Shown: positions 5,256 through 63,668, numbered from the stretch's first letter. The stretch is 64,000 nucleotides of DNA from Candidatus Kapaibacterium sp. (GCA_963664875.1 OY761611.1:1056001-1120000); one strand, 5' to 3'. The notes: a model not told the origin generated them from the letters alone. A program made the numbers and translations.

Positions 5256-8200
5256 ATGAGATATTTCTTACCATTGATTATGTTAGGCTTGTTCTGCTTA
5301 GATTTAAATGCAAAAGATACATATACTTTTAAATTGGCAAATGACTTTGATCCCGCTGTGGAGCAATTTATAAATAACTCCCATATTTTTGCTGCTCCTG
5401 ATTTTGATTCGTTCAAAATTAAAGTTGAAAAATTGAGCTACAAAAAAGCTGACGGGATAAATTCAAATTATAATAATTTGACACATCTTTGGGCATCCAA
5501 TCCCTTGCCTTCTATTAACTATCAAGGCAAAAAACGACATTTGGATTTAGTCCGTATTGACTTCCCTGTTTTTAAGCATTCCCCGCAAGCTGATTCTGTT
5601 TTGGTAGAATGTATATACTCGGTTGACTATGGTACTACAATCCCAAAAGTCATTACTAAAATTGATAAATTCCAAATAGCTGCATTCGCAGAAGTACAAA
5701 ACACAGACAAGCTACCTGCTTTGTTTTCACTCAAAAAGTCAAATTCGAAAGACAGGTTGCTTGCAGATAAAAATTGGATTGACAACAACCTTGACTATCT
5801 CAAACTAACTACAAAAGAAGATGGAATAGCAGCAGTTCCAACCGACAGAATTTTAGAAATATACCCATCTTGGGAAGGTCTGCCTGTTTCTAATATCCAA
5901 CTTTTGCATAATTCAGAGAAATACCCTGTATTCTTCTCTTCAAACTACTTGCAAAGTGACGGCATGATTTACTTCAAAGCTAAGCGTGCCTCCGGCGATA
6001 CAACCCATTATGACAACTATGCCGGCGAAGAACCTTTCTTTCTTGTGCGAAATAACAACGATATGCCTCTAAGCATAAATAATTTGGGTCAATCTTCCAA
6101 TCCGACTGCAACGATAAATAAAGTAAATATAAATCAGCATATAGAAAAAGAATCTGAATATAGCTTTGGTGATACAGTCTATTCCCACTACACTCTGCCT
6201 TTTGAAGGCTGGTACTGGGATATATTTGACAAGTTCGAAAAACCGGGATCGATTGCTACTAAAAGGTTTTATTATAATCATGTGATAACTCCTGCAGACG
6301 AACCTCTCTCTATAAGGCTAAAGTACAACACTCAGTTAAATTATGATGCTTCACGCTCCGATTTTGGAATTGCAATGCGTTTGAATGGTGAAGTTCACGA
6401 TTCTGTATATATTAAAGCATTGGGAGAAGGCTTTTTCGAGAACAATCCTTCTGATCAGCTTTATCCCGGAGGTCTGACTTTTGATATTCGTTCCCATGGC
6501 TATAAGGATGATATAGGCAGAGTTGGGGTTGATTACATAGAAATAGCAGGAAATGTAATTCCGTTTGCTCACAATGGCTCAGCAGAATTTTCAATACCTA
6601 AGCAATCTTCTGATTTCAAGGTTGTTATTCCGGGTTTTTCCGGCTCTTCAATCGTTGCGTATGACACACTGAATAATGCAATCGCTTTCCTTGAAGCTAC
6701 TCCCGGTACAAGTTTTAGAATAAATGCAAAAAATGAAGATGTTTCACACACATCAATTGTAATAAATGACAGCATTTACTCATCTGATTTGGCAGGCTTG
6801 CATATAGCTTCGCTCGATTCTAAAGGTCTATGGAAAACAGAATATTTCGCTGCTAATAACGACGCAGCTGCAAATGCACTTCAAGCCTTGTCAGGCAGAG
6901 GTTTTGCCATAACTATCAATCAATTCCCAATTTCAGACAAAATCAGAACAGCTTTAAATAACCTTGGAGCAAAAAATCTTCCAAACGGCAATATGGATGT
7001 TTATTGCCTTTATGGTGCAGCTAACCAAATTAAAGAAAAACTCGGGACTAATAATCTCGGTGTTGTTGAGTTTATTGACCATTCGGCAGGACTGTCCTAT
7101 AAAGCAGAATTAAAATTGAAAGCCAACACTAATTACCACTTTGTTGTCGTAGATAATAAGCACATCGACAATACAAATCTATATATGGTTGAAAAACCTG
7201 ATTTATTAGCTCAGGACAAAGAATATAAAGCAATAGTGCTGACGCATACAGAGCTTATTCCTTCTGCTATAGCATACAAAAACTACAGAGAAGCTCAAAA
7301 TATAGATGTGAAAATTGTAGATGTAAACAACATTTATAATTTTTACAACTACGGAAAAAAATCTCCTTATGCTATAAAAGAATATCTGGCTGATATTTAT
7401 AATACTTGGAATACGCCAATTCCTACTCATGTTGTCATCATAGGTGATGCCAGCTGGGACAACAGAAACGTCATGGGATTTGATAAAACTTTTGACTTTG
7501 TCCCTGCTTATGGGTGGCCTGTTACCGATTATTGGTATGTAACTCTTGACAGCCCGGCTGACCAACTGGGTGATTTTTCAATTGGCAGAATTCCTGTCAA
7601 TAACAATCAGGAAATGATAGATTATATAGACAAAATTCGAGCTTATGAAACGGCTACAAAATCTCCTTGGATGAAACGATTTATGCACTTGAGTGGCGGC
7701 GGAGATGCAGCTGAAATAAAGAAAATATATGACAAGTCAAAGATTCATGGCATGCTTCTAAACCAGCAACCACTTAATGCAGACACTGTTCACATTGTCA
7801 AACCGGTGGGTGATGTTGTCAGCGAAGCAGTGGCAAGTAAGATAAAAAATGAAATCAATAACGGCGTCAATTTTATAACTTTCTTTGGTCATGGCTCTCC
7901 TGAAGTATTTGACATTGAGGGTTGGCAGGTCGAAAAACTAAATAATCAGGATAGATATTTTGGTTTACTCACTCTTGCCTGCAATGCCGGTGCTTTTGCA
8001 GAACCTTTTTTCAAAAAATGCAGAAACGAATCCTACGTAGTCGCTGCCAATAAAGGGGCTATTATGGCTGTGGGTGGCACCGGAGTGGAAAATATCGCAC
8101 ATGTGGACACTTGGGCACAATTTTACTGGGAAGGTGCAATTCGTAAAGATTTGAATATCAGAAATTACGGCGAGTTGGTTACTTATACAAAATCAGCGAT

Positions 8201-10868
8201 TCCTCTCAGCCAAGGATATATCCCGGTTCGTTTTCAGACTAATTTTATTGGTGACCCATTAGTAGATATGAGAATCGAAAAAAATCCGGATCCATATTTA
8301 AGCAAAAACTTTACATCACTTACAAATGAACAAGGCTCAAAAGAATTTACTGATGAAAACGAGACAATTAAAATTAACGGAACTATATATAACGCAGGTA
8401 CTTCGTACACTGATTCAGTAAAGTTACGTCTGAGCTATACCTTTGAAGGCACGGAAACAACTCAGGATATTCAGTACCTTTATTTATTCAATTCCACTGA
8501 CTTTAGTTTTGTAATTCCTATCAAAGGAAAACCCGGTAAATTTAATATTAAAATAGAAATAGATCCTGAAGGCAAAATTCAAAATGACGATTTGAGCAAC
8601 AATGTCCTGCTCTATGATGTAGATGTGTACAAACGAGGTTTACTTCCTTTAGAGCCTCTCTCCTATTGGAATATCAATGGACAAAATCCTACTTTCAGAT
8701 TTATCAATCCTCTAACAGGTAGTTTTTCTTATCGTTTTATGATTACAGAAAACAAAGGTGATACTCTGTCGCCGCTATTTGTTTCGCAGGATTCGGAGAT
8801 TGACCTTCGGGAAAACTTTATCCTTTGGAACTCAACTGCCTCTCTTTCATTGGGCAAAAACTACTGGATTGCTGCTAAGCCGATTGACGCTGATATTACA
8901 AAACCATACACAGATTGGCTTTGGATACCGGTGCATGTCGAATCAGTCGAACCAAATCTGGCTTCTTACAAAAAGTCTAACAATTATTTAGAAGCTCACA
9001 ATTTCACAAATGTAGAAATAAAAGACTCAGACGGCATGCAACGCATTGCACTTAATGACGTTGCTTCGGAATTTTACCTCGTATCTATCAAAGGTTACAA
9101 TCTCGATGGTGTAAATACCAGATGGGCAACTGTAACTGTTGATAACCAAACCTACGTTGATATTTGGAGTGCCCGTGGTTTTAATGTTGTTACTTATCCA
9201 AAGTATATTGGCGGAGGTTCGCCTCGATATAAAAGATTTGACTGTTACAGACCCGATCCGAGCACAGATGAAAATCTCGACAATGTATATGCTTTACACC
9301 ATTTTCTTCGTGATTCTGTAAGTGCTGACGAATACCTCGCACTTGCAACTTGCGATAACTCATTAGCGTGGCAGGAACAAATTCAGCAAAAAACTCCATC
9401 CGATTTCGGTAGTCTCGACACTTTAAAAAATCTATTGAAAATGTATGGTGCTACTCGCATTGACTCTATCAATTCTCAGGTTTCTTATGCACTGTTTTCT
9501 TGGAAAGGAGCTAGCCCGGAAGAAGCAACTGAAGCAATCAATATGCTTAAAGATTCGGCTAAAGTGGAAGGGCAAATGACACTTTACAGAAACGAAGGTG
9601 TATTCTCTTCTGAAAAAATAGGTCCTGCTCAGAAGTGGAATTATATTCAAGTTGATGGAAATGATATCGAAAATTCTACACTTAGTGTTTCTATTTACGA
9701 TACTTTAAGTGTTGAAACCGTTTTTGGCGAATTTGAAATTGGAAAACAAATTGATTTGTCTGCCATAGATGCAAGTCTTTATCCGTATTTATCTTATAAA
9801 GTAAATTTGAAAAGGAATTCGACCACCCAAACACCTTCGATATCTTCTGTTGCTATCAGGTACAACCCTTCTCCGGAAATGGCAATAAAGAAATCTACTT
9901 TTGAGCTTGCAGAAAAAGAAATAATGCGTGGGGAAACAAACAGAGCTTATGTTGAAGCTGAAAATATTTCAGGCAGATCTACTATGACAAAATCGGACGT
10001 TCAGATAGATATTTTCAAAAATCAATCTCTATCTGAAAGTACCATTTACGAAATAGCTCAAATGCCTGTGGACGCCGGCACAGAAATAGAAAAGATTTTT
10101 GATACTGCAGGCTTATCAGAATCCAATCATATTGAAATTGAAATTAACCCGTATAAAAGGCATTTTAGCGAGCTTTATTCCGGCAATAATTCTATTTCGG
10201 AAGAATTTGTGCTTACTGAAGATACTATCCGACCGACTGCTGTAATCCTTGCTGATGATAATATCATCCAAAACGGCAGCTATATCTCAAACAACCCTCT
10301 TTTCGAACTAAGAGTCTTTGACAATTCACCTTTGGAATTTTCTGAAGGATTAGAGCAGGCTATTAGGCTAAACGGCAAATACTACACAGAGGACAACGCT
10401 GCTTTTTACGATTTGCAACTAATTGAAAACTCCGAAGAAAATCTGAAAGCAGTATTACAGGTTAAAACTGACACAATCAAATACGAAGAGTCTCTTTTAA
10501 TAGGTTATATAATGGATGCAACCGGAAATAGAGACACCATTGAATATTACCTCAATACAACTACAAAATCGCAGATTAACGAAGTTAAAGCTTCACCAAA
10601 TCCGTTTACCGACAAAACAAATATAGAGTTTACACTACTTTCAGCAAGCTCAGAAGGTAATGTAGAAATAGCTGTTTTCAGTGCAGAGGGGTCTTTGGTG
10701 AAAAGACTTGTTTTGGAAAACCTCAAAGTAGGCAAAAACAGTATCGAATGGGATGGCAATGATGAAAACGGGATCAAAGTACCCGTAGGTGCCTATTATT
10801 TCAGTGTCATAAGGAATTCCGGCATATTCACAGAGGAATCTTACGGTAAGCTGATAATGATAAAATAG
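5256..10868 (+). CDS. Large C25 (gingipain/PorU-like) cysteine peptidase with CARDB-like Ig domains and T9SS/FlgD-Ig C-terminal domain
   Basis: Signal peptide, IIGDASWD, TDYWYV, IGRIPV, catalytic-type His (FFGHGS) and Cys (LACNAG), FIGDP, CARDB-like IDPEGKIQNDDLSNN, C-terminal ASPNPF...WDGNDENG...GAYYF...GKLIMIK. Confidence 0.85.
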   Translation: MRYFLPLIMLGLFCLDLNAKDTYTFKLANDFDPAVEQFINNSHIFAAPDFDSFKIKVEKLSYKKADGINSNYNNLTHLWASNPLPSINYQGKKRHLDLVRIDFPVFKHSPQADSVLVECIYSVDYGTTIPKVITKIDKFQIAAFAEVQNTDKLPALFSLKKSNSKDRLLADKNWIDNNLDYLKLTTKEDGIAAVPTDRILEIYPSWEGLPVSNIQLLHNSEKYPVFFSSNYLQSDGMIYFKAKRASGDTTHYDNYAGEEPFFLVRNNNDMPLSINNLGQSSNPTATINKVNINQHIEKESEYSFGDTVYSHYTLPFEGWYWDIFDKFEKPGSIATKRFYYNHVITPADEPLSIRLKYNTQLNYDASRSDFGIAMRLNGEVHDSVYIKALGEGFFENNPSDQLYPGGLTFDIRSHGYKDDIGRVGVDYIEIAGNVIPFAHNGSAEFSIPKQSSDFKVVIPGFSGSSIVAYDTLNNAIAFLEATPGTSFRINAKNEDVSHTSIVINDSIYSSDLAGLHIASLDSKGLWKTEYFAANNDAAANALQALSGRGFAITINQFPISDKIRTALNNLGAKNLPNGNMDVYCLYGAANQIKEKLGTNNLGVVEFIDHSAGLSYKAELKLKANTNYHFVVVDNKHIDNTNLYMVEKPDLLAQDKEYKAIVLTHTELIPSAIAYKNYREAQNIDVKIVDVNNIYNFYNYGKKSPYAIKEYLADIYNTWNTPIPTHVVIIGDASWDNRNVMGFDKTFDFVPAYGWPVTDYWYVTLDSPADQLGDFSIGRIPVNNNQEMIDYIDKIRAYETATKSPWMKRFMHLSGGGDAAEIKKIYDKSKIHGMLLNQQPLNADTVHIVKPVGDVVSEAVASKIKNEINNGVNFITFFGHGSPEVFDIEGWQVEKLNNQDRYFGLLTLACNAGAFAEPFFKKCRNESYVVAANKGAIMAVGGTGVENIAHVDTWAQFYWEGAIRKDLNIRNYGELVTYTKSAIPLSQGYIPVRFQTNFIGDPLVDMRIEKNPDPYLSKNFTSLTNEQGSKEFTDENETIKINGTIYNAGTSYTDSVKLRLSYTFEGTETTQDIQYLYLFNSTDFSFVIPIKGKPGKFNIKIEIDPEGKIQNDDLSNNVLLYDVDVYKRGLLPLEPLSYWNINGQNPTFRFINPLTGSFSYRFMITENKGDTLSPLFVSQDSEIDLRENFILWNSTASLSLGKNYWIAAKPIDADITKPYTDWLWIPVHVESVEPNLASYKKSNNYLEAHNFTNVEIKDSDGMQRIALNDVASEFYLVSIKGYNLDGVNTRWATVTVDNQTYVDIWSARGFNVVTYPKYIGGGSPRYKRFDCYRPDPSTDENLDNVYALHHFLRDSVSADEYLALATCDNSLAWQEQIQQKTPSDFGSLDTLKNLLKMYGATRIDSINSQVSYALFSWKGASPEEATEAINMLKDSAKVEGQMTLYRNEGVFSSEKIGPAQKWNYIQVDGNDIENSTLSVSIYDTLSVETVFGEFEIGKQIDLSAIDASLYPYLSYKVNLKRNSTTQTPSISSVAIRYNPSPEMAIKKSTFELAEKEIMRGETNRAYVEAENISGRSTMTKSDVQIDIFKNQSLSESTIYEIAQMPVDAGTEIEKIFDTAGLSESNHIEIEINPYKRHFSELYSGNNSISEEFVLTEDTIRPTAVILADDNIIQNGSYISNNPLFELRVFDNSPLEFSEGLEQAIRLNGKYYTEDNAAFYDLQLIENSEENLKAVLQVKTDTIKYEESLLIGYIMDATGNRDTIEYYLNTTTKSQINEVKASPNPFTDKTNIEFTLLSASSEGNVEIAVFSAEGSLVKRLVLENLKVGKNSIEWDGNDENGIKVPVGAYYFSVIRNSGIFTEESYGKLIMIK

Positions 10869-52491: not shown

Positions 52492-53067
52492 ATGGCTGTA
52501 TTACCAATATACAACAGTTTTCATCCCATTCTCAAAAACAAAGCTTCCAAAGTAGAAGCGATTGACGATTCGGTCAGGCAATTGGTAGATGATATGTTTG
52601 AGACTCTATACAATATAAGCAACGGGGTCGGACTTGCTGCAAATCAGGTAGGCGACAAACGTGCGGTAATTATTATAGACCTCGGAGTCGGAGAAGATGA
52701 AGAAGAAAAGCTAAGCGAAAAAATAGTAATGATCAATCCGGAAATAATTGACAGCTCCGAAAATACTGATGACGACTACGAAGGTTGCCTTAGCGTGCCC
52801 GAATATTTTGAGAAAGTTGTACGCCCTGCTCAAATCAAAGTAAAATATTACGACTTAGATATGCAAGAGATTGTCCGAGATGTTGATGGTTTCCTTGCCA
52901 GATGCATGCAGCACGAAATCGACCATCTCAATGGTGTACTTTTCTACGAAAGACTTTCCGGTCTAAGGAAGACACTTGGACAAAACAAGTTGAAAAAAAT
53001 CAAAAAGGGCAACATAGTACCTGATTATCCTATGATAAATGCTGACGGGAAACCGCAAAAGCAATAG
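52492..53067 (+). CDS. def: Peptide deformylase
   Basis: GVGLAANQVG, EGCLSVP, QHEIDHLNG. Confidence 0.97.
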   Translation: MAVLPIYNSFHPILKNKASKVEAIDDSVRQLVDDMFETLYNISNGVGLAANQVGDKRAVIIIDLGVGEDEEEKLSEKIVMINPEIIDSSENTDDDYEGCLSVPEYFEKVVRPAQIKVKYYDLDMQEIVRDVDGFLARCMQHEIDHLNGVLFYERLSGLRKTLGQNKLKKIKKGNIVPDYPMINADGKPQKQ

Positions 53068-53096
53068 GAGTAAGTAGTTTAAGATTGCGTAAGATT

Positions 53097-53190
53097 AGCC
53101 AAAGAAGTCAGTTCTCTTTTGGCTCTAAAAATACCCTGAATAAAGTTTGTCGAATCGCTAAACATAGAGGGGGAAAGAACAATCCCCCCT
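53097..53190. terminator. Two hairpins between convergent def and the T9SS array
   Basis: AGCCAAAGAAG...CTCTTTTGGCT and AGGGGGA...TCCCCCCT. Confidence 0.5.
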
Positions 53191-53212
53191 ATTACTAAAA
53201 TATATTTGCCAT

Positions 53213-53241
53213 ATTAAAAACAAGAAAAAGAGTTTACTCAT
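53213..53241 (-). pseudogene. Stub of a seventh start (MSKLFFLFLI) downstream of the last copy
   Basis: ATGAGTAAACTCTTTTTCTTGTTTTTAAT, 2 nt after the copy-6 stop, nearly identical to the copy-2 start ATGAGTAAATTCTTTTTCTTGTTTTTTAT. Similarity then ends abruptly. Confidence 0.8.
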
Positions 53242-53243
53242 AT

Positions 53244-54557
53244 CTATTCTCCTTTTATGAGTTTATAAGAAATTGCTGTGTCGGCGTAAACTATCTGAAG
53301 AATATACATACCTTTAGCAAGTTTATCCAAAATTAGAGCAATACCTTCTTCATTTGTATTTATCTGTACGAGATAAGTAACTTCTCTTCCGCCTTCATCA
53401 AATAGTTTTATATTTTCCCTAGGAATGTAATATTTGCAAGGAAGAAAAACTTGGTTTGTAGTAGGATTTGGATATAAGACAGTTCCTTCCAAGTCTTCTA
53501 CAATGCTTGAGTCAAAGAAATACTTGCCTGAAGAGATATTGTAAGGGCTGCTACCAATAATAACATCCTTTGTAGAAATGATAGGACGAAACCATCCATA
53601 ATGATAATCATTCTCTTTATCATAGAGAGATATTTTATTACTGATATCAATAATTATAGTTTGCAGACTTAACGTTGTGAGTATGAAGGTTTCTTCCTTA
53701 AAAAAATCGATAGTGCCACCACCGTATTGATTGCCCTTTATGTCAAAAGAGTTATTAATAATAGAATTTTTATCAATACTGAATATAAAAAATCCCATGT
53801 GGTTTTCATCGGTAGAATTGTGTTTAAAGATTCCAGAAATATATAATAAATCAGAATTTGAAGGTGAAAATTTCAAATCTCCTGGAGAACCCCATTTCTC
53901 AGTAGTTTGCGGAACTAATTCATAATCCACAACTAATTTATTCGTTTCAGTTTCCCAAACAAAGAGTCGAGAATGTCCCTCGCTAACAGAAGCAAAATAT
54001 CTGTTATCCGGAGAGATAGCAAAAATATAGAAATAGTTATTGTGTTGATTCTCGGTAGTTAACTCGAATTTTTCAGTAAGTGATTCTGCATCATAAACTC
54101 TAATTTCATGATAATAGCTGTAATTACCAGCATCATTAAATTGATATTCTAAGTTTAAATAAATATTGTTCCTGTCATTATCAACAGCAATGTTTTTGTA
54201 TCGTATTTCCCAACCATCTTTTACAGTAGGCAGAGTTTCTTCCTGAATAATATTCATCTCATTCAGATCTACCTTAACCAGTCGCGCACCTGAAAGCACT
54301 AGAGCAGTTTGCCCGCCTTTCATGAGTTCAAACTTAGAGGCATCAATTTCAGGAATTCGGCGAAGCAACTCACCAGTTTCAGAGTTATGCACAGCTAAGT
54401 CCACATTAGACCCGGCAACGAACTCTTCGTCGTTATTGATAAAATGCAACGAATAGACATTTTTGTCAGGGGTCGGAATTGACCATAAAAACTTCATTTC
54501 ACCTGCCTGAGTGGCAAGTGTTAGGAGAATAAAACACAAGAAAAAGATCTTACTCAT
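53244..54557 (-). CDS. Array copy 6: T9SS cargo, WD40/YVTN-like beta-propeller plus type A CTD
   Basis: Signal peptide TQA-G, propeller-like FAISPDNRYFAS...LFVWETETNKL and LKFSPS, CTD LYPNP...LAKGMYIL...YKLIK. Confidence 0.85.
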   Translation of the reverse strand: MSKIFFLCFILLTLATQAGEMKFLWSIPTPDKNVYSLHFINNDEEFVAGSNVDLAVHNSETGELLRRIPEIDASKFELMKGGQTALVLSGARLVKVDLNEMNIIQEETLPTVKDGWEIRYKNIAVDNDRNNIYLNLEYQFNDAGNYSYYHEIRVYDAESLTEKFELTTENQHNNYFYIFAISPDNRYFASVSEGHSRLFVWETETNKLVVDYELVPQTTEKWGSPGDLKFSPSNSDLLYISGIFKHNSTDENHMGFFIFSIDKNSIINNSFDIKGNQYGGGTIDFFKEETFILTTLSLQTIIIDISNKISLYDKENDYHYGWFRPIISTKDVIIGSSPYNISSGKYFFDSSIVEDLEGTVLYPNPTTNQVFLPCKYYIPRENIKLFDEGGREVTYLVQINTNEEGIALILDKLAKGMYILQIVYADTAISYKLIKGE

Positions 54558-54559
54558 CT

Positions 54560-55870
54560 CTACTCTCCTTTTATGAGTTTATAAGAAATAGCCGTGTCGG
54601 CATAAACTATCTGAAGAATATACATACCTTTAGCAAGTTCATTCAAAATTAGAGTAATACCTTCTTCATTTGTATTTATCTGTACGAGATAAGTAACATC
54701 TCTTCCGCCTTCATCAAATACTTTAATGTTTTCTCTTGGGATGAAATATTCGCAAGGAAGGAAAACCTGATTTGTCGTAGGGTTAGGATATAAGACAGTA
54801 TCTTCCAAGTCTTCCACAATGCTGGAGTCAAAATAGTATCTACCCGAAGATATCCCATCTGGACTACTACCAATAATTAAATCATTTTTGGAAATAATCG
54901 GACGGTACCATCCATAATTATAATCGTGTCTTTCATTATAAATAGTTTGATTTTGATTTACATTGACTATTATAGTACGATAACCTACAGTAATGAGTAT
55001 ATCATTATCATTAGTAAAGAAATCAACAGTTCCTGTCCAAAAAGGTTTTTCTATAAAAAATGTATTGCTTACTATTGAGTTACTATTTATACTAAACATA
55101 AAAAATCCTCTATGAATATCATCGTTAGAATTATGTCTAAATGCTCCTGAAACAAACAATAAATCAGAATCAGAAGGAGAAAATTCTAAGTCTGCAGGAT
55201 TGCCCCATTCGTTTGAGGATTCAGGCATTAAAGGATAATCTACTACTAATTTATTCGTTTCAGTTTCCCAAACAAAGAGTCGAGAATGTCCCTCGCTAAC
55301 AGAAGCAAAATATCTGTTATCAGGAGAGATAGCAAAAATATAGAAATAGTTATTGTGTTGATTCTCGGTGGTTAACTCAAATTTTTCAGTAAGTGATTCT
55401 GCATCATAAACTCGAATTTCATGAAAATAGCTGTAATGACCAGCATCATTAAATTGATATTCTAAGTTCAAATAGATATTGTTTCTGTCATTATCAACAG
55501 CAATGTTTTTGTATTGTATTTCCCAACCATCTTTTACAGTCGGCAGAGTTTCTTCCTGAATAATATTCATCTCATTCAGATCTACCTTAACCAGTCGTGC
55601 ACCTGAAAGTACTAAAGCAGTTTGCCCGCCTTTCATGAGCTCAAACTTAGAGGCATCAAGTTCAGTAAGGCGACGAATCAGTTCACCTGTTTCAGAGTTA
55701 TGCACAGCTAAATCCACATTAGACCCGGCAACAAATTCCTCATCGTTATTGATGAAACGAAGCATAAAAACATTTTTATCCGGCGTAGGCACCGACCATA
55801 AAAACTTCATTTCACCTGCCTGAGTGGCAAGTGTCAGGAGAATAAAAAACAAGAAAATGAATTTACTCAT
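54560..55870 (-). CDS. Array copy 5: T9SS cargo beta-propeller protein
   Basis: Intact 436-aa paralogue with the same architecture. Confidence 0.85.
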   Translation of the reverse strand: MSKFIFLFFILLTLATQAGEMKFLWSVPTPDKNVFMLRFINNDEEFVAGSNVDLAVHNSETGELIRRLTELDASKFELMKGGQTALVLSGARLVKVDLNEMNIIQEETLPTVKDGWEIQYKNIAVDNDRNNIYLNLEYQFNDAGHYSYFHEIRVYDAESLTEKFELTTENQHNNYFYIFAISPDNRYFASVSEGHSRLFVWETETNKLVVDYPLMPESSNEWGNPADLEFSPSDSDLLFVSGAFRHNSNDDIHRGFFMFSINSNSIVSNTFFIEKPFWTGTVDFFTNDNDILITVGYRTIIVNVNQNQTIYNERHDYNYGWYRPIISKNDLIIGSSPDGISSGRYYFDSSIVEDLEDTVLYPNPTTNQVFLPCEYFIPRENIKVFDEGGRDVTYLVQINTNEEGITLILNELAKGMYILQIVYADTAISYKLIKGE

Positions 55871-55872
55871 CT

Positions 55873-57187
55873 CTATTCTCCTTTTATGAGTTTATAAGAA
55901 ATAGCCGTGTCAGCATAAACTATCTGAAGAATATACATACCTTTAGCCAGTTTATCCAGAATTACTGTAATACCTTCTTCATTTGTATTTATCTGAACAA
56001 GATAAGTAACTTCTCTTCCGCCTTTATCAAATACTTTAATGTTTTCTCTTGGGATGAAATATTCGCAAGGAAGGAAAACCTGATTTGTCGTAGGATTTGG
56101 GTATAAGATTGTTTCTTCCAAGTTTTCCACAATGCTTGAGTCGAAGGAATATTTACCAGCTGATAAACTTAATTGACTCGCCCCTATTATTAGATTATCA
56201 CTTTTAGTGATGATTGGATCTGACCAAATATAGTTATCAGAATTAAGTGCGCTAAAAACAATTTTGTTTTCCATAATATCTAAAATTTTAACTATTTCTC
56301 TGCTAGTGTTTAGAATATAATTCTCATTTTTAAAAAATGCAACTGTACTCCATCCTAATTGAGAGTCGTATTGATCAAATGCAGAATTTATTATCTCATT
56401 CTTTTCTATATCAAATATCTTAATACCTTGATGGTTTTCATCCGAAGCGGATTGTTTAAAACGACCAGTTAATAATATTATATTAGCGTTATCTAAAGAA
56501 AACTCTATATCTGCGGGATATCCCCATTCCAAAGTAGTTTGAGGAACTAATTCATAATCCACAACTAATTTATTCGTTTCAGTTTCCCAAACAAAGAGTC
56601 GAGTGTCCCTCACTAACAGAAGCAAAATATCTGTTATCCGGAGAGATAGCAAAAATATAGAAATAGTTATTGTGTTGATTCTCGGTGGTTAACTCAAATT
56701 TTTCAGTAAGTGATTCTGCATCATAAACTCGAATTTCATGATAATAGCTGTAATTACCAGCATCATTAAATTGATATTCTAAGTTTAAATAAATATTGTT
56801 CCTGTCATTATCAACAGCAATGTTTTTGTATTGTATTTCCCAACCATCTTTTACAGTCGGCAGAGTTTCTTCCTGAATAATATTCATCTCATTCAGATCT
56901 ACCTTAACCAGTCGTGCACCTGAAAGTACTAAAGCAGTTTGCCCGCCTTTCATGAGCTCAAACTTAGAGGCATCAAGTTCAGTAAGGCGACGAATCAGTT
57001 CACCTGTTTCAGAGTTATGCACAGCTAAATCCACATTAGACCCGGCAACAAATTCCTCATCGTTATTGATGAAACGAAGCATAAAAACATTTTTATCCGG
57101 TGTAGGCACCGACCATAAAAACTTCATTTCACCTGCCTGAGTGGCAAGTGTCAGGAGAATAAAAAACAAGAAAATGAATTTACTCAT
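55873..57187 (-). pseudogene. Array copy 4, frameshifted by a 2-nt deletion at ~56603
   Basis: GGA CAT TCT CGA CTC (GHSRL) in the sibling copies versus GGA CAC TCG ACT C here. Gene span is 1315 nt, and restoring 2 nt gives 439 codons. Confidence 0.85.
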
Positions 57188-57189
57188 CT

Positions 57190-58497
57190 CTATTCTCCTT
57201 TTATGAGTTTATAAGAAATAGCCGTGTCAGCATAAACTATCTGAAGAATATACATACCTTTAGCCAGTTTATCCAGAATTACTGTAATACCTTCTTCATT
57301 TGTATTTATCTGAACAAGATAAGTAACTTCTCTTCCGCCTTTATCAAATACTTTAATGTTTTCTCTTGGGATGAAATATTCGCAAGGAAGGAAAACCTGA
57401 TTTGTCGTAGGATTTGGGTATAAGACAGTTTCTTCCAAGTCTTCTACTATGCTTGAATCAAAGAAGTATTTACCGGCGGATAATTGATAAGCTGCTCCAA
57501 TTATTATATCTTCTCTCGAAATTATTGGAGAAGGCCAACTATATGTATAATGATGAGCTTCGTTGTAAATAATATTTTTATGATTCAAATCATAAATAAA
57601 ACATAAGTCATTTCTTGTAAGCAACAAATAATTTATATTTTTAAAAAAGTTTATAATGCCCGAGTGTTGAAGACCAGACACATTAAATGTATTGTCAATA
57701 ATTATTTTTTTGTTAATGTCGAAAATAAAAATACCCTGATGGTCTTCATCTTTAGAATTATGTCTAAATGCTCCTGATACATACAATAAATCAGAATCAG
57801 AAGGAGAAAATTCTAAGTCTGCAGGATTGCCCCATTCGTTTGAGGATTCAGGCATTAAAGGATAATCCACTACTAATTTATTAGTTTCAGTTTCCCAAAC
57901 AAAGAGTCGAGAATGTCCTTGAGTAACAGAAGCAAAGTACTTGCAATCCACTGATATTTTAAAGACTGCAAATAAGTATTTACGTTGCTCACCTGTCGTA
58001 AGTTCAAATTCTTCTTTCAGAGTTTCCGCACTATAAACCATGATTTTATGATAGAATGTTTCATTACCTCCATCATTAAAATTTAATCGAGCATCCAAAT
58101 ATATTTTACTTCTTATAGGATCTAAAACTAATGCTCTATAGCTTATAGACCAACCATTCTCATCTGTCTTTAGTGTTTCTTCCTGAATAATATTCATCTC
58201 GTTCAGATCTACCTTAACAAGGCGTGCACCTGAAAGCACTAGAGCAGTTTGCCCGCCTTTCATAAGCTCAAACTTAGAGGCATCAATTTCAGGGAGGCGA
58301 CGAAGCAGTTCACCTGTTTCAGAGTTATGCACAGCCAAGTCCACATTAGATCCGGCAACAAATTCTTCATCGTTATTGATAAAATGCAACGAATAGACAT
58401 TTTTATCAGGGGTCGGAATTGACCATAAAAACTTCATTTCACCTGCCTGAGTGGCAAGTGTCAGGAGAATAAAACACAAGAACAAGATCTTACTCAT
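57190..58497 (-). CDS. Array copy 3: T9SS cargo beta-propeller protein
   Basis: Intact 435-aa paralogue with a unique central block KTDENGWSISY... Confidence 0.85.
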   Translation of the reverse strand: MSKILFLCFILLTLATQAGEMKFLWSIPTPDKNVYSLHFINNDEEFVAGSNVDLAVHNSETGELLRRLPEIDASKFELMKGGQTALVLSGARLVKVDLNEMNIIQEETLKTDENGWSISYRALVLDPIRSKIYLDARLNFNDGGNETFYHKIMVYSAETLKEEFELTTGEQRKYLFAVFKISVDCKYFASVTQGHSRLFVWETETNKLVVDYPLMPESSNEWGNPADLEFSPSDSDLLYVSGAFRHNSKDEDHQGIFIFDINKKIIIDNTFNVSGLQHSGIINFFKNINYLLLTRNDLCFIYDLNHKNIIYNEAHHYTYSWPSPIISREDIIIGAAYQLSAGKYFFDSSIVEDLEETVLYPNPTTNQVFLPCEYFIPRENIKVFDKGGREVTYLVQINTNEEGITVILDKLAKGMYILQIVYADTAISYKLIKGE

Positions 58498-58499
58498 CT

Positions 58500-59804
58500 C
58501 TATTCTCCCTTAATAATTTTGTATGAAATAGCTTCATTAGCATAAACTACCTGAAGAACATACATACCTTTAGCAAGTTCATTCAAAAATAGCGTAATAC
58601 CTTCTTCATTTGTATTTATCTCAACAAAAGAAGTAACTTCTCTTCCGCCCTGATCAAATACTTTTATATTTTCTAGAGGAATGTCATATTCACAAGGAAG
58701 GAATACCTGATTTGTTGTAGGATTTGGATATAACACGGTTCCCTCTAAATCTTCAACGATGCTGGAGTCAAAGAAGTATCTTCCCGAAGATAATCCATCA
58801 GGACTGCTACCAATGATTACATCATTTTTTGAAATTAGCTGACGATACCAACCATACTTAAAATCATGTCTTTCATTGTAGATAGTTTCATTTTGACTGA
58901 CATTCACTATTATTGTAGTATTACTTATAGTCATCAGCATAAAGTTATTATTTGTAAAGAAATCTATTGTACCATTCCAAAATGGATTTACTATATAAAA
59001 ATAATCATCTACTATTTTTGTATTACTTATATTGAAAATAAAAAATCCTCTATGATCATTATTTGAATTTTGTTTAAAAGCACCTGAAACATATAATAAG
59101 TTAGAATTGGAAGGTGAAAAGTTTAAATCATCAGGAGATCCCCATTCATTTGAGGATTCAGGCATTAAAGGATAATCTACTACTAATTTATTAGTTTCAG
59201 TTTCCCAAACACGAAGGTAGGATTTTCCATCATTAACTGCTGCGAAATACTTACAATCTGCCGAAATAGTAAAATAGAAAGGGTCGTCATGTTGATCTTC
59301 TGTTGTAAGTTCAAATTTTTCAGTAAGTGATTCCAAATCGTAAACTCGAATTTCATTTGAGTAACTGAAGTTTCCTGCATCATTAAATTGATATTCTAAA
59401 CTTAAGTATATATTGTTTCTGTTTGTGTCAATTGTTAAATTTTTGTATTGTATTTCCCAACCATCTTTTACAGTAGGCAGAGTTTCTTCCTGAATAATAT
59501 TCATCTCATTCAGATCTACCTTAACAAGGCTTGCTCCTGAAAGTACTAGAGCAGTTTGCCCGCCTTTCATAAGCTCAAACTTAGAGGCATCAATTTCAGG
59601 AATGCTACGAAGCAGTTCACCTGTTTGAGAGTTATGTACAGCTATATCCACATTAGACCCGGCAACAAATTCCTCATCGTTATTGATGAAACGAAGCATA
59701 AAAACATTTTTATCCGGCGTAGGCACCGACCACAAAAACTTCATTTCACCTGCCTGAGTGGCAAGTGTCAGGAGAATAAAAAACAAGAAAAAGAATTTAC
59801 TCAT
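58500..59804 (-). CDS. Array copy 2: T9SS cargo beta-propeller protein
   Basis: Intact 434-aa paralogue with the most divergent CTD. Confidence 0.85.
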   Translation of the reverse strand: MSKFFFLFFILLTLATQAGEMKFLWSVPTPDKNVFMLRFINNDEEFVAGSNVDIAVHNSQTGELLRSIPEIDASKFELMKGGQTALVLSGASLVKVDLNEMNIIQEETLPTVKDGWEIQYKNLTIDTNRNNIYLSLEYQFNDAGNFSYSNEIRVYDLESLTEKFELTTEDQHDDPFYFTISADCKYFAAVNDGKSYLRVWETETNKLVVDYPLMPESSNEWGSPDDLNFSPSNSNLLYVSGAFKQNSNNDHRGFFIFNISNTKIVDDYFYIVNPFWNGTIDFFTNNNFMLMTISNTTIIVNVSQNETIYNERHDFKYGWYRQLISKNDVIIGSSPDGLSSGRYFFDSSIVEDLEGTVLYPNPTTNQVFLPCEYDIPLENIKVFDQGGREVTSFVEINTNEEGITLFLNELAKGMYVLQVVYANEAISYKIIKGE

Positions 59805-59806
59805 CT

Positions 59807-61117
59807 CTATTCTCCTTTTATGAGTTTATAAGAAATAGCCGTGTCAGCGTAAACTAGCTGAAGAATATACATACCTTTAGCAAGTTTGTCCAGAATTAGA
59901 GTAATACCTTCTTCATTCGAATTTATCTGAACGAGATAAGTAACTTCTCTTCCACCTTCATCAAATACTTTGATGTTTTCTCTTGGGATGAAATATTCGC
60001 AAGGAAGGAAAACCTGATTTGTAGTAGGGTTAGGATATAATACAGTTACTTCCAAGTCTTCAACTATACTTGAATCAAAGTAGTATTTACCGGCGGATAA
60101 TTGATAAGCTGCTCCAATTATTATATCTTCTCTCGAAATTATTGGAGAAGGCCAACTATATGTATAATGATGAGCTTCGTTGTAAATAATATTTTTATGA
60201 TTCAAATCATAAATAAAACACAAGTCATTTCTTGTAAGCAACAAATAATTTATATTTTTAAAAAAGTTTATAATGCCCGAGTGTTGAAGACCAGACACAT
60301 TAAATGTATTGTCAATAATTATTTTTTTGTTAATGTCAAAAATAAAAAAACCCATGTGGTCTTAATCGTTAGAATTATGTCTAAATGCTCCTGAAACAAA
60401 CAATAAATCAGAATCAGAAGGAGAAAATTCTATGTCTGCAGGATTGCCCCGTTCGTTTGAGGATTCAGGCATTAAGGGATAATCCACAACTAATTTATTT
60501 GTTTCAGTCTCCCAAACACGAAGGTGAGACTTCCCATCATTAACTGCTGCGAAATACTTACAATCTGCCGAAATAGTAAAATAGAAAGGGTCGTCATGTT
60601 GATCTTCTGTTGTAAGTTCAAATTTTTCGGTAAGTGATTCCAAATCGTAAACTCGAATTTCATTTGAGTAACTGAAGTTTCCTGCATCATTAAATTGATA
60701 TTCTAAACTTAAGTATATATTGTTTCTGTTTGTGTCAATTGTTAAATTTTTGTATTGTATTTCCCAACCATCTTTTACAGTAGGCAGAGTTTCATCCTGA
60801 ATAATATTCATCTCATTCAGATCTACCTTAACAAGGCTTGCTCCTGAAAGTACTAAAGCAGTTTGCCCGCCTTTCATAAGCTCAAACTTAGAGGCATCAA
60901 TTTCAACGAGGCGACGAATCAGTTCACCTGTTTCACTGTTATGTACAGCTATATCCACATTAGACCCGGCAACAAATTCCTCATCGTTATTGATGAAACG
61001 AAGCATAAAAACATTTTTATCCGGCGTAGGCACCGACCATAAAAACTTCATTTCACCCGCCTGTGTGGCAAGTGTCAGGAGAATAAAAAGAGGTAAAAAG
61101 AGTAAAGAAAGTCGCAT
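59807..61117 (-). pseudogene. Array copy 1 (promoter-proximal), interrupted by an in-frame TAA at 60362-60364
   Basis: HNSND*DHMG versus HNSKDEDHQG in copy 3 (GAA to TAA). Both halves are in one frame, 437 codons from ATG 61117. Confidence 0.85.
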
Positions 61118-61204
61118 ATATCTAATCCTGTTTTGCATTATTGATTTATTACATAATAAGCAGGATTTCGTTCATACAGAAGCGGAATTTTTAGATTTAG
61201 ATAT

Positions 61205-61232
61205 AAAAAAAGCTGCCCTATCGGACAGCTTA
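61205..61232 (-). terminator. Terminator after the 2-oxoacid oxidoreductase operon
   Basis: AAAAAAAGCTGCCC-tatc-GGACAGCTT hairpin, giving a U-tail on the minus strand. Confidence 0.75.
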
Positions 61233-61256
61233 ATATATCTAATTAATATCAGATTC

Positions 61257-61793
61257 TTATTTTACAAAGCTCGCACCTACTTCGAAGGCTTGCTTGTTCA
61301 ATGGAATAAGTTTATGGTGGCGTTCAGGAAGTACTTGTTCCAATGCTTTGAAAATAGTTTCAGGAGCAACTGTACTAGTACCTTGGATAAATGCACCAAG
61401 CATAATCATATTCAATACTTTGATGTTTTTCAACTTAACAGCTTCTTCAGAGCCCGGTATAGCATAGATTTTAATATCTGTGCGAGTAGGAGCTTTCAAG
61501 ATATTTGTGCTGTCATAAAACATACATCCGCCCGGTTTGATTCTGCTTTCGAATTTATCAACAGAAGGTTGGTTCAAAGCAACAACCGAATCAAACATAG
61601 AGATATATGGAGAGCTAACTTTTCTATCAGAAACGATAGTAGTTGCGTTAGCAGTACCGCCGCGCATTTCCGGACCGTAAGAAGGCATCCAGCATACTTC
61701 TTTGTCTTCGATCATGCCTGCATAAGCAAGGATCATACCCATAGAAAGTACACCCTGTCCGCCAAATCCTGCAAAAATAGCTTCTTGTGTCAT
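61257..61793 (-). CDS. 2-oxoacid:ferredoxin oxidoreductase gamma subunit
   Basis: AGFGGQGV, PSYGPEMRGGTA, NMIMLGA. Confidence 0.95.
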   Translation of the reverse strand: MTQEAIFAGFGGQGVLSMGMILAYAGMIEDKEVCWMPSYGPEMRGGTANATTIVSDRKVSSPYISMFDSVVALNQPSVDKFESRIKPGGCMFYDSTNILKAPTRTDIKIYAIPGSEEAVKLKNIKVLNMIMLGAFIQGTSTVAPETIFKALEQVLPERHHKLIPLNKQAFEVGASFVK

Positions 61794-61794
61794 A

Positions 61795-62598
61795 TTACTT
61801 CACCTCCGGTACTTTAATGTCGCCAAGCGGATAATAAGGAATCATTTTTTCTTCAACGAATTTGTTTGATTGCAATGGAGTCATTTTCCAGTTAGATGGG
61901 CAGTTAGAAACCACTTCAACCATGCAATATCCGAGACCTTCCTGTTGGTATTTGATAGCTTTCTGAATAGCTTTTTTGAGTTTTCTTACGTTAGCAGCAG
62001 TATGTACTGACTGACGTGTAACATAAGCAACACCCGGTAATGGAGCAATCATATCAGAAATTTTCAAAGGATGTCCCATAGTTTCAACGTCTCTACCAAA
62101 AGGAGAAGTAGAAGAAACCATACCCGGTAAGGTAGTAGGAGCCATCTGACCGCTGGTCATACCATAGATACCGTTATTCACAAATATAGTAAGGATTTTT
62201 TCGCCTCTGTTGGCAGCGTGTACAGTTTCAGCAGTACCGATAGCAGCCAAGTCGCCGTCACCTTGATATGTGAAAACGAATCTTTCAGGGAAAACGCGTT
62301 TGATACCTGTAGCTACAGCACAAGCTCTACCGTGAGCAGCTTCAGACATATCTACGTTCATGTAGTGATATGCAAATACAGAACAACCAACCGGTGCAAC
62401 ACCGATAGTATCATTTTGCAATCCCATTTCTTTTACAACTTCCATAAGCACTTTGTGAATAGTGCCATGACCGCAACCAGGGCAGTAATGGAGAGGCGTA
62501 TCAGTAAGTGTTTCAGGTTTATCCCAAACGATATTTTCTTTTTGGCATATTTCTTCAGGTGCAAAACCTTCAGCCACATTCATTGTATTTTCAGCCAT
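61795..62598 (-). CDS. vorA: 2-oxoacid:ferredoxin oxidoreductase beta (TPP-binding) subunit, VorA-type
   Basis: HYCPGCGHG, PVGC, AHGRA, YQGDGD...NNGIYGMTSGQ. Confidence 0.9.
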   Translation of the reverse strand: MAENTMNVAEGFAPEEICQKENIVWDKPETLTDTPLHYCPGCGHGTIHKVLMEVVKEMGLQNDTIGVAPVGCSVFAYHYMNVDMSEAAHGRACAVATGIKRVFPERFVFTYQGDGDLAAIGTAETVHAANRGEKILTIFVNNGIYGMTSGQMAPTTLPGMVSSTSPFGRDVETMGHPLKISDMIAPLPGVAYVTRQSVHTAANVRKLKKAIQKAIKYQQEGLGYCMVEVVSNCPSNWKMTPLQSNKFVEEKMIPYYPLGDIKVPEVK

Positions 62599-63668
62599 TA
62601 CTTGCCTCCTTCAATAAACATTTTTTCGAAGTTTTCAAGGATTTCTTCAGGAGAAGGAATCATACCGCCTGCACGACCAAAGAACTTAACATCAGTTTTG
62701 CCGTTTACAGAAAGTCTTACGTCTTCCACCATTTGACCGTAGTTCATCTCTACGTCAAAGATACCTTTTACTTTTGGTGCAGTTTCAGCATAGATTTCAG
62801 TTGGGAAAGGGAACAAAGAGATAGGTCTGATTAGACCGATTTTGTAACCTTTTTCTCTACCTAATTCCATAGCTTTCATACAGATTCTTGCACCTAGACC
62901 AAAGCCTGTAAATACGTATTCAGCATCTTCTAAGTTCATTGTTTCATAGCGAACTTCGTTTTCCTGAATAGTTTTGTACTTACGTTGAAGGTGAAGGTTA
63001 ACCTGTTCCATTTTTTCGGATTCGATGTGAAGAGAAGTGATGTATCTTCTGTCAGCATCTTTAGGTTTGCCTGTGTGAGCCCATTCAGGGAACTCAGTTT
63101 TGCGAGGCATTTGATCGAAAAGTTCAACTTTTTCCATCATCTGACCGATAGCACCATCAGCAAGAATCATAACAGGATTGCGGTATTTTTCAGCTAAATC
63201 AAAACCATCTCTAACGAAATCAACCATTTCCTGAACGCTTGATGGAGCAAGCACGATCATTTTATAATCGCCATGTCCGCCACCTTTTACAGCTTGGAAA
63301 TAGTCTGCCTGAGAAGGCTGGATAGTACCAAGACCAGGGCCACCACGGTTTACGTTACATAAAACGCAAGGAAGCTCAGCGCCTGCGATGTAAGAAATAC
63401 CTTCCATCATTAGTGACATACCAGGAGAAGAAGAAGTAGTCATTACTCTTTTACCTGTTCCGGCAGCACCATAAATCATATTGATAGAAGCCACTTCAGA
63501 TTCAGCTTGAAGCACAACCATACCAGTTCTTGCATTTGCTTCGTTTGCTAAATATTCTAATACTTCGGATTGTGGAGTGATAGGGTATCCAAAATAGGCA
63601 TCACAACCGGCTCTAATCATAGCCTCTGCGAGTGCCTCATTACCTTTCATAAGTTTGATTTCACCCAT
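62598..63668 (-). CDS. vorB: 2-oxoacid:ferredoxin oxidoreductase alpha subunit, VorB-type
   Basis: LMKGNEA, GYPITPQSE, QAESE, TSSSPG, RGGPGLG, EMNYGQM. Confidence 0.92.
   Translation of the reverse strand: MGEIKLMKGNEALAEAMIRAGCDAYFGYPITPQSEVLEYLANEANARTGMVVLQAESEVASINMIYGAAGTGKRVMTTSSSPGMSLMMEGISYIAGAELPCVLCNVNRGGPGLGTIQPSQADYFQAVKGGGHGDYKMIVLAPSSVQEMVDFVRDGFDLAEKYRNPVMILADGAIGQMMEKVELFDQMPRKTEFPEWAHTGKPKDADRRYITSLHIESEKMEQVNLHLQRKYKTIQENEVRYETMNLEDAEYVFTGFGLGARICMKAMELGREKGYKIGLIRPISLFPFPTEIYAETAPKVKGIFDVEMNYGQMVEDVRLSVNGKTDVKFFGRAGGMIPSPEEILENFEKMFIEGGK

Follow-up and report, generated by a model that had tools for sequence, protein, structure and literature searches.

A tandem array of T9SS propeller genes in Candidatus Kapaibacterium sp., probably grown by duplication and recombined into a mosaic of old, constrained blocks

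We analysed a stretch of 64,000 nucleotides (nt) from Candidatus Kapaibacterium sp. (GCA_963664875.1 OY761611.1:1056001-1120000), hereafter the window. Six paralogous genes lie head-to-tail on its minus strand at 53244-61138, and each encodes a predicted beta-propeller followed by a type A C-terminal domain (CTD) of the T9SS (type IX secretion system). We numbered the copies c1 to c6 by window coordinate; transcription would run from c6, the first gene, to c1, the last. An earlier note, made from the sequence alone, had described six tandem paralogues of about 435 codons at 53213..61117, spaced 2 nt apart between def and the vor operon. Matches to Pfam and TIGR models identified the flanking genes as claimed, and all five junctions within the array read TAG-2 nt-ATG. 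The array lies where it had been placed, although its copies occupy 53244-61138, and 61117 is the second ATG of c6, an alternative start within a 5' end unique to that copy. There are indeed six same-strand copies, but only four of them are open reading frames (ORFs). Copy c3 carries a 2-nt deletion near 56603 (codon ~196; a gap at alignment columns 612-613), which splits it into ORFs of 202 residues (56579-57187) and 259 residues (55873-56652). Copy c6 has an in-frame TAA at 60362-60364 (codon 259), where c4 has GAA. Both lesions lie outside simple repeats, and both broken copies retain intact downstream frames. The features are collected in Table 1.

Table 1. The array, its copies and its flanks in the window (aa, amino acid residues; AF2, AlphaFold2; V1 and V2, the variable blocks defined in the text)
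Feature	Coordinates	Strand	Description
def (peptide deformylase), flank	52492-53067	+	PF01327 177.8 bits, TIGR00079 161.3 bits
Terminator-like hairpin	53168-53190	-	Closes the array, convergent with def
Relic of a copy's 5' end	53213-53241	-	2 nt after the c1 stop; from side-by-side comparison of 5' ends and 3' flank
c1	53244-54557	-	Intact ORF of 437 aa with a putative signal peptide, a WD40-type propeller of seven blades and a type A CTD of the T9SS (PF18962 32.7 bits, TIGR04183 36.3 bits, both over cut-off)
c2	54560-55870	-	Intact, 436 aa; copy chosen for the AF2 model
c3	55873-57187	-	Broken; 1315 nt, not a multiple of 3
c4	57190-58497	-	Intact, 435 aa; V1 block private, V2 block common to c6
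c5	58500-59804	-	Intact, 434 aa; V1 block common to c6, V2 block related to that of c2
c6	59807-61138	-	Broken; unites a c5-class V1 with a c4-class V2
Terminator-like hairpin	61210-61231	-	Follows the vor gamma-subunit gene and bounds the array's transcription unit upstream
2-oxoacid:ferredoxin oxidoreductase gamma, beta and VorB-type alpha genes, flank	61257-63668	-	PF01558, PF02775, PF01855; NF005507 538.9 bits

The assignment of a type A CTD was borne out by profile searches. All four intact proteins exceeded the curated cut-offs of TIGR04183 (36.3-39.9 bits; cut-off 23) and PF18962 (32.7-36.4 bits; cut-off 27), and a six-frame scan of the genome found the domain over cut-off at all six copies. 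The genome also encodes the T9SS core, with SprA (TIGR04189, 786 bits), PorU (NF033707, 865 bits) and PorV (NF033710, 257 bits) all over cut-off, and contains at least 150 matches to TIGR04183 over cut-off (150 of 202 candidates scored). At the N-terminus, a short basic n-region and a hydrophobic stretch end in TQA, followed by GE, features of a putative signal peptide. Cargo of the type A CTD class is normally cleaved by PorU and then either attached to the surface or released. From these domains and from what is established for the T9SS, each product would be exported by Sec through the putative signal peptide ending in TQA, before GEMKFLWS, would fold into a single propeller and would be delivered by its CTD to the T9SS.

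To describe the passenger domain, we used an AlphaFold2 (AF2) model of c2 built on a 41-sequence family alignment (mean predicted local distance difference test score, pLDDT, 88.2; predicted template modelling score, pTM, 0.74). The model starts with a helix at residues 2-14 and a low-confidence linker, continues with 28 strands in residues 20-346 and ends in a beta-sandwich CTD at residues 355-434. Its N-terminal strand (residues 20-28) was assigned as strand D of blade 7, the velcro closure. Foldseek retrieved a bacterial WD40 protein (5yzv_B; E 6.4e-13, template modelling score 0.78) and VIA-align retrieved YncE (3vgz_A; Z 28.6, root-mean-square deviation 2.8 Å over 292 residues), and the best matches of both programs were seven-blade propellers (YncE, WDR5, Gβ and RACK1). 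The propeller proposed earlier was thus confirmed, in the predicted model, as a single seven-bladed WD40-type beta-propeller. The array proteins share this fold with Escherichia coli YncE (3vgz_A) and with WD40 domains (5yzv_B, WDR5), and one of their blades carries the canonical WD-type strand C-D motif. They differ from these proteins in being fused to a T9SS CTD, and sequence identity is only 9-17%.

Sequence likeness to the WD repeats of many large proteins was confined to residues ~147-213, a segment that includes a 13-residue word invariant in the array. This makes the word the strand C-D motif of a blade of WD type. Pfam models of WD40 type remained below their cut-offs (best PF24817, 29.4 bits against 109.9), and database searches returned neither a catalytic signature nor a named relative. 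Neighbours in a protein atlas were unnamed T9SS proteins or lactonase/YncE-type propeller-plus-CTD clusters, which we treated as leads only. Since the top structural matches are generic seven-blade propellers, we drew no functional inference from the fold. That the proteins serve as non-enzymatic binding or adhesion modules is a suggestion to which we give about equal credence either way.

We then compared the six copies along their length. In the protein alignment, the mature N-terminus, the first ~117 residues and the CTD are near-invariant, and the central word VWETETNKLVVDY is identical in all six copies. The stretches between them, residues 118-205 and 222-346, fall into sharply different classes; we refer to them as V1 (blade 3 to early blade 4) and V2 (blades 5-7). 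The analysis therefore upheld the constant frame and variable blocks described before, and with them the notion of a repertoire of alternative blocks held between conserved parts. At the DNA level, a scan along the alignment revealed that the nearest neighbour of each copy switches within the gene. Copy c3 is nearly the same as c2 over its first 600 nt, has a V2 block of its own and ends at the 3' side in 240 nt (columns 1100-1344) identical to those of c4. Similarly, columns 280-640 are the same or almost the same in c5 and c6, and so are columns 780-1090 in c4 and c6.

Relatives from outside the genome were added to this comparison. The closest were found in genome G001, in a looser three-gene cluster between smc and purB that includes an intact gene 86% identical to c6. 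The middle gene of this cluster (L019:9986-11230) is placed between two close relatives of the array genes; it encodes a canonical-WD40 propeller only ~20% identical to those of the array, whereas its CTD is 74-82% identical to theirs. It looks as if the CTD had been homogenised at the level of the domain between neighbouring genes. A further relative, protein P0002, is encoded on a 6581-bp contig from a different sample. It matches the c1/c2/c3 class at 95-99% identity in V1 and the c4/c6 class at 85-93% in V2, a combination not found in the window genome.

Tests for recombination gave extreme values. The pairwise homoplasy index (PHI) was 0.216, against a permuted mean of 0.427 (standard deviation 0.006), and none of 1000 permutations was as low. 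The longest concordant runs were exceeded in 0/500 permutations for 12 of the 15 pairs, in 1/500 for two pairs and in 21/500 for c1-c4. Block trees were built from nine rows, omitting the G001 middle gene, whose propeller is non-homologous. The V1 tree united c1, c2, c3 and P0002 (100/100), and the V2 tree united c4, c6, P0002 and gene a of G001 (98/95) as well as c2 and c5 (99/96). Because neighbours switch along the gene, PHI is extreme and the V1 and V2 trees conflict, we read the constant/variable pattern as a recombination mosaic.

To characterise selection on the blocks, we estimated dN/dS (ω) by the Nei-Gojobori method (NG86); saturation and recombination make these estimates rough. Values ranged from 0.05 to 0.85 across regions and pairs, and none exceeded 1. 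Between classes, the proportion of synonymous differences (pS) was 0.66-0.83 in V1 and 0.49-0.73 in V2, with ω of 0.14-0.43. The conserved parts gave pS of 0.01-0.42 (N-terminal part) and 0.11-0.57 (CTD), with ω of about 0.06-0.3. The exception was an ω of 0.85 for c5-c6 in the conserved part, which is due to the different signal-peptide start of c6. The highest ω in any variable block was 0.61. When V2 was compared across species, gene a of G001 differed from c6 and c4 by dS of 0.32 and 0.26, respectively, and dN of 0.05-0.06 (ω 0.15 and 0.21). Synonymous sites are saturated between classes, and on these estimates the variable blocks are therefore old allele classes under constraint and not fast-evolving sequence.

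The position of the variation was assessed on the model. Mean pairwise amino acid difference was 0.11 in blade 1, 0.04 in blade 2, 0.26 in blade 3 and 0.24 in blade 4, and it rose to 0.41, 0.63 and 0.45 in blades 5, 6 and 7; the closing strand (0.06) and the CTD (0.11) varied little. Within V2, the values were 0.45 for strands, 0.59 for top loops and 0.49 for bottom loops. In the predicted structure, variation would therefore follow blade sectors, with a slight top-loop excess but without concentration on one face. The earlier note had proposed diversifying selection, with the variable residues on one face of the propeller. Our values speak against both: ω stays below 1, V2 is conserved across species, blades 1-2 and blades 5-7 differ widely, and strands are nearly as variable as loops. 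With dN/dS low and variation off any single face, two outcomes that the note itself had named as telling against it, the selection reading does not stand.

A second array in the same genome bears on the constant parts. Array B (C1:2199405-2206032, locus L035) consists of five intact paralogues, b1 to b5, of 439-442 residues with 1-nt spacers, ~33% identical to the array in the window (array A). It is a mosaic too, with a different part held constant. In residues 201-280, pS is ~0.1 among b1-b4 and 0.57-0.58 against b5, and the N-terminal blades fall into two classes. Moreover, b3 equals b4 in residues 281-352, while pS between them is 0.60 in residues 25-200. Because array B keeps another part constant, the comparison argues that the "constant" parts are largely gene-conversion tracts, which goes against a constant frame fixed by function. 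Following the last copy of array B is an 88-residue truncated remnant of the same kind of gene as one encoding a 1510-residue protein elsewhere in the genome (locus L034, C1:1361081-1366946). There, the 1510-residue gene begins 2 nt after the stop of a singleton family member (C1:1365615-1366946), and its product has no Pfam domain except a sub-threshold CTD match. An ancestral propeller-partner gene pair may lie behind these arrangements.

The ends of array A point to the way in which it was founded. The relic that follows c1 matches the first ~26 nt of the coding sequence of the internal copies before diverging. Copy c6 has a 5' sequence of its own as far as a run of T, beyond which the common sequence begins. 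The relic is therefore the footprint of the founding duplication, whose junction lay at that run. An ancestral gene was duplicated through an illegitimate junction at the T-run microhomology, which joined its 3' flank to a point inside the region coding for the signal peptide. The start codons of the internal copies thus derive from the old 3' flank, and these copies lie 2 nt apart, with no room for promoters of their own.

From this beginning, the array grew and was reshaped by homologous recombination among its copies, through unequal crossing-over and gene conversion. The conserved stretches (the end of the signal peptide with blades 1-2, the WD word of blade 4, and the CTD) owe their likeness in part to purifying selection and in part to conversion, and are also the sites of exchange. 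The blocks between them (blade 3 to early blade 4, and blades 5-7) are old, diverged allele classes shuffled as units. The outcome would be a standing combinatorial repertoire of propeller binding modules, four of which would currently be functional. We consider it probable, with good though not full confidence, that the array is a lineage-specific family of T9SS cargo that arose by tandem duplication and was then recombined into a mosaic of old, constrained blocks.

Several points weigh against this reading. The stop in the first gene of the presumed operon and the frameshift in a middle gene could mean that the locus is decaying and not maintained. At 0.14-0.61, the ω of the variable blocks is higher than that of the CTD, which is 0.06-0.16, and episodic positive selection may have acted at a few sites. 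Blades and faces were assigned from the DSSP strand order of a predicted model, not from coordinates, and top and bottom follow what we take to be the canonical WD40 topology. Gene conversion and unequal crossing-over are indistinguishable from one genome. Finally, database searches named no member of the family beyond "T9SS type A sorting domain-containing protein".

The first alternative takes the same blocks as the working parts of a variation system. In one form, the conserved islands would be maintained as recombination hinges, and ancient V1 and V2 blocks would be reshuffled within arrays and between strains into new surface-receptor combinations, with the broken copies as donors and phages or predators as the source of pressure. 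We think this unlikely. If true, it would make the array a propeller-based counterpart of the leucine-rich repeat (LRR) locus of Flavobacterium psychrophilum discussed below, and the same may then hold for the many tandem arrays of T9SS cargo genes in this genome and in related ones. A dedicated repertoire for antigenic or receptor variation, under diversifying selection by phages, predators or hosts, with the islands as hinges and the broken copies as silent donors, appears to us somewhat more doubtful still. The swapping of blocks as units at conserved islands would fit it, as would the V1/V2 combination of P0002 and the intact downstream frames of c3 and c6. The F. psychrophilum locus, moreover, has been linked to phage challenge in the available portion of its description (PMC10392669). 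Against such a repertoire, no ω above 1 was found anywhere, and the allele classes are kept across species under purifying selection (ω 0.15-0.21). Variability goes by blade and not by face, both lesions lie outside repeat tracts, and the copies are full length with their own start codons in one apparent operon, with no single expression site. In addition, no invertible-promoter repeats were found in the region, and the only reverse-transcriptase match of the genome lies ~2.4 Mb away.

Alternatively, the locus could be a decaying, near-neutral tandem expansion, in which the copies are redundant, the mosaic is a by-product and pseudogenisation is under way. Two of six copies are broken, including the promoter-proximal one; the position of the locus is not conserved, since def and vor are adjacent in none of four congeners; and the congener G003, although 100% complete, has no match to the family at all. 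This account has to accommodate four copies whose frames remain open over 434-437 codons, with an ω well under 1 in each block, a V2 allele class conserved between species, and the persistence of the family, often with several copies to a genome, in 36 of the 130 genomes of the taxonomic family. We regard decay as improbable.

The remaining alternative is that strain variants of one or two genes were strung into a false array during assembly. Assembly is difficult where repeats follow one another with a period of 1.3 kb and have long tracts in common, and short-read contigs end inside the array, none bridging the whole of it. However, the host genome is closed: one contig accounts for its 3,827,814 bp, completeness is 100% and contamination 1.09%. 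Short-read contigs of four public runs matched the private blocks of all six copies with 0 differences; these runs represent at most three samples from two studies, possibly including the sample behind the assembly. At both lesions, no other letter or indel was seen in the four runs, and the lesion bins had depth in 4/4. In run X2, contigs of blocks common to two copies (records 12 and 15) had a k-mer depth of ~37, compared with 18-23 for private blocks, about a doubling and no more than a weak hint against an artefact. Array B, with its five copies, and the arrays of congeners are organised alike. We therefore consider an assembly artefact extremely improbable. Run X6, which left bins at 55292-55565, 58032-58305 and 59676-59949 without cover and had more contigs continuing unlike the window, may represent another strain. 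One contig joining 53213 to 55497 (21-nt side) was set aside as a repeat artefact.

Block swapping among neighbours is a familiar mode of evolution in bacterial surface-protein families and not a new variation system. Concerted evolution, through interlocus gene conversion and unequal crossing-over, is established in tandem families of this kind. Array A resembles such families in its near-identical and anciently diverged patches, its incongruent block trees, the low dS of its homogenised tracts and its breakpoints in conserved stretches. In mechanism we see no difference; only the family is undescribed. The earlier note had likened the array to antigenic-variation cassettes, and the likeness holds in one respect, the exchange of blocks by recombination. 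In Neisseria pilE/pilS and Borrelia vlsE, one expression site is served by silent donor cassettes. Segmental exchange of variable blocks between conserved sequence is common to these systems and the array, and the two broken copies could be donors. Unlike them, the array has no single expression locus, all copies being full length with an ATG in one apparent operon. It also gives no sign of unidirectional or high-frequency conversion, and its variable blocks are under purifying selection. We therefore rejected an expression-site/silent-cassette system, given full-length copies that start with ATG, lie 2 nt apart and are bracketed by two terminator-like sites. A diversity-generating retroelement was rejected as well: the sole PF00078 match lies ~2.4 Mb away (C1:3527056-3527478), and the copies differ, among other things, by indels and by synonymous changes that have reached saturation (no explicit search for a template repeat was made).

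A described system for T9SS cargo, which the earlier note had not recognised, does exist: the tandem LRR locus of F. psychrophilum (Altae-Tran et al. 2020, PMC10392669). In the available portions of its descriptions, this locus holds up to 19-23 tandem paralogues of a putative surface protein (PMC10392669, PMC8400371, PMC5682007), in which conserved ends enclose variable middles, recombination is extensive and junctions lie at microhomologies (PMC10392669, PMC8400371). Several members carry TIGR04183 and were found in the secretome (PMC5682007); gene fragments occur, and a role in adhesion or phage reception was suggested (PMC10392669, PMC8400371, PMC5682007). As far as those portions go, array A is like that locus in that its paralogues follow one another on one strand and conserve a putative signal peptide as well as a T9SS CTD, and in its recombination signatures and microhomology junction, here one junction at a T-run with a 26-nt relic. 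The passengers differ. In F. psychrophilum the passenger is described as an LRR solenoid that varies in repeat number and at hypervariable positions on one side, whereas the WD40-type propeller of array A varies by whole blade blocks among a few old allele classes. The array also differs from the locus as described in having six copies, spacers of 2 nt and no more than a single small relic. Turnover between strains, documented in the accounts of F. psychrophilum, is hinted at here only by the single protein P0002. Among the papers listed by literature searches limited to the T9SS combined with tandem WD40 paralogues, gene conversion or beta-propeller, none concerned a tandem WD40-propeller T9SS array. 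What sets the present array apart is its WD40-type propeller fold and its variation by whole blade blocks.

The relic provides a clean molecular fossil of a founding duplication, and with it the array documents the expansion and blade-block shuffling of an uncharacterised family of T9SS-secreted propellers. The pattern of a "constant frame and hypervariable blocks" can arise among tandem genes for surface proteins without diversifying selection; we attribute it here to gene conversion that acted patchily on old paralogues constrained by purifying selection. What the family does could be worth testing, since the genome maintains no fewer than 12 close copies, besides several that are more distant.

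Terminator-like hairpins were confined to the ends of the array, with one preceding c6 and the other following c1. This arrangement and the spacers of 2 nt suggest that the six genes form one operon. Its promoter is presumed to lie within 61139-61209. A scan for sigma-70-type promoters was uninformative (45 sites against 39.3 ± 6.9 in shuffled sequences), and around the presumed promoter inverted repeats were limited to short, weak pairs, with no convincing invertible-promoter repeats in the region. The conserved C-terminal codons K-G-E-stop (e.g. 54560-54575) spell an AAGGAG-like Shine-Dalgarno motif ~7-9 nt before the next ATG. Tandem Repeats Finder, whose longest period of 500 is shorter than the unit of ~1313 nt, returned 0 rows.

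Relatives of the array were sought in other genomes, a comparison that the earlier note had suggested for the def-vor interval. They were found, at other loci, and the comparison turned up no second strain with the def-vor flanks. In all four congeners murD and def are adjacent, whereas def and vor are adjacent in none. The array thus sits at a synteny break (53068-53243 and 61139-61256), def adjoining vor only in the window genome; beyond def follow murD and ftsW. In the congeners, neither the first 12 kb downstream of vorC nor the first 1.5 kb downstream of def contained a relative of the array. A family match (E ≤ 1e-20), often in tandem, was present in the 36 genomes mentioned above, which represent 16 of 55 genera of the taxonomic family; at most 13 candidates were scored per genome, and copy numbers are therefore lower bounds. 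With a single-protein query, 8 of 41 genomes matched. A phmmer search against 1.84 billion representatives returned 303 proteins at E ≤ 1e-3, 10 of them at E ≤ 1e-30, and a scan of Joint Genome Institute (JGI) metagenomes with c2 gave 123 pattern matches, 0 of which were confirmed by tblastn.

Within the window genome, the family profile also detected more distant full-length members, several in tandem and some within other cargo arrays. Further tandem arrays of T9SS cargo genes of similar size lie, for example, at C1:924078-931173, 1655889-1660773, 1823036-1827665, 2593248-2599227, 3436557-3440121 and 2439495-2445912. Outside the array, an ORF of the window at 5256-10868 on the plus strand (1870 residues) gave a partial, sub-threshold match to a PorU-type sortase (127.6 bits; cut-off 420); the true PorU is located elsewhere in the genome.

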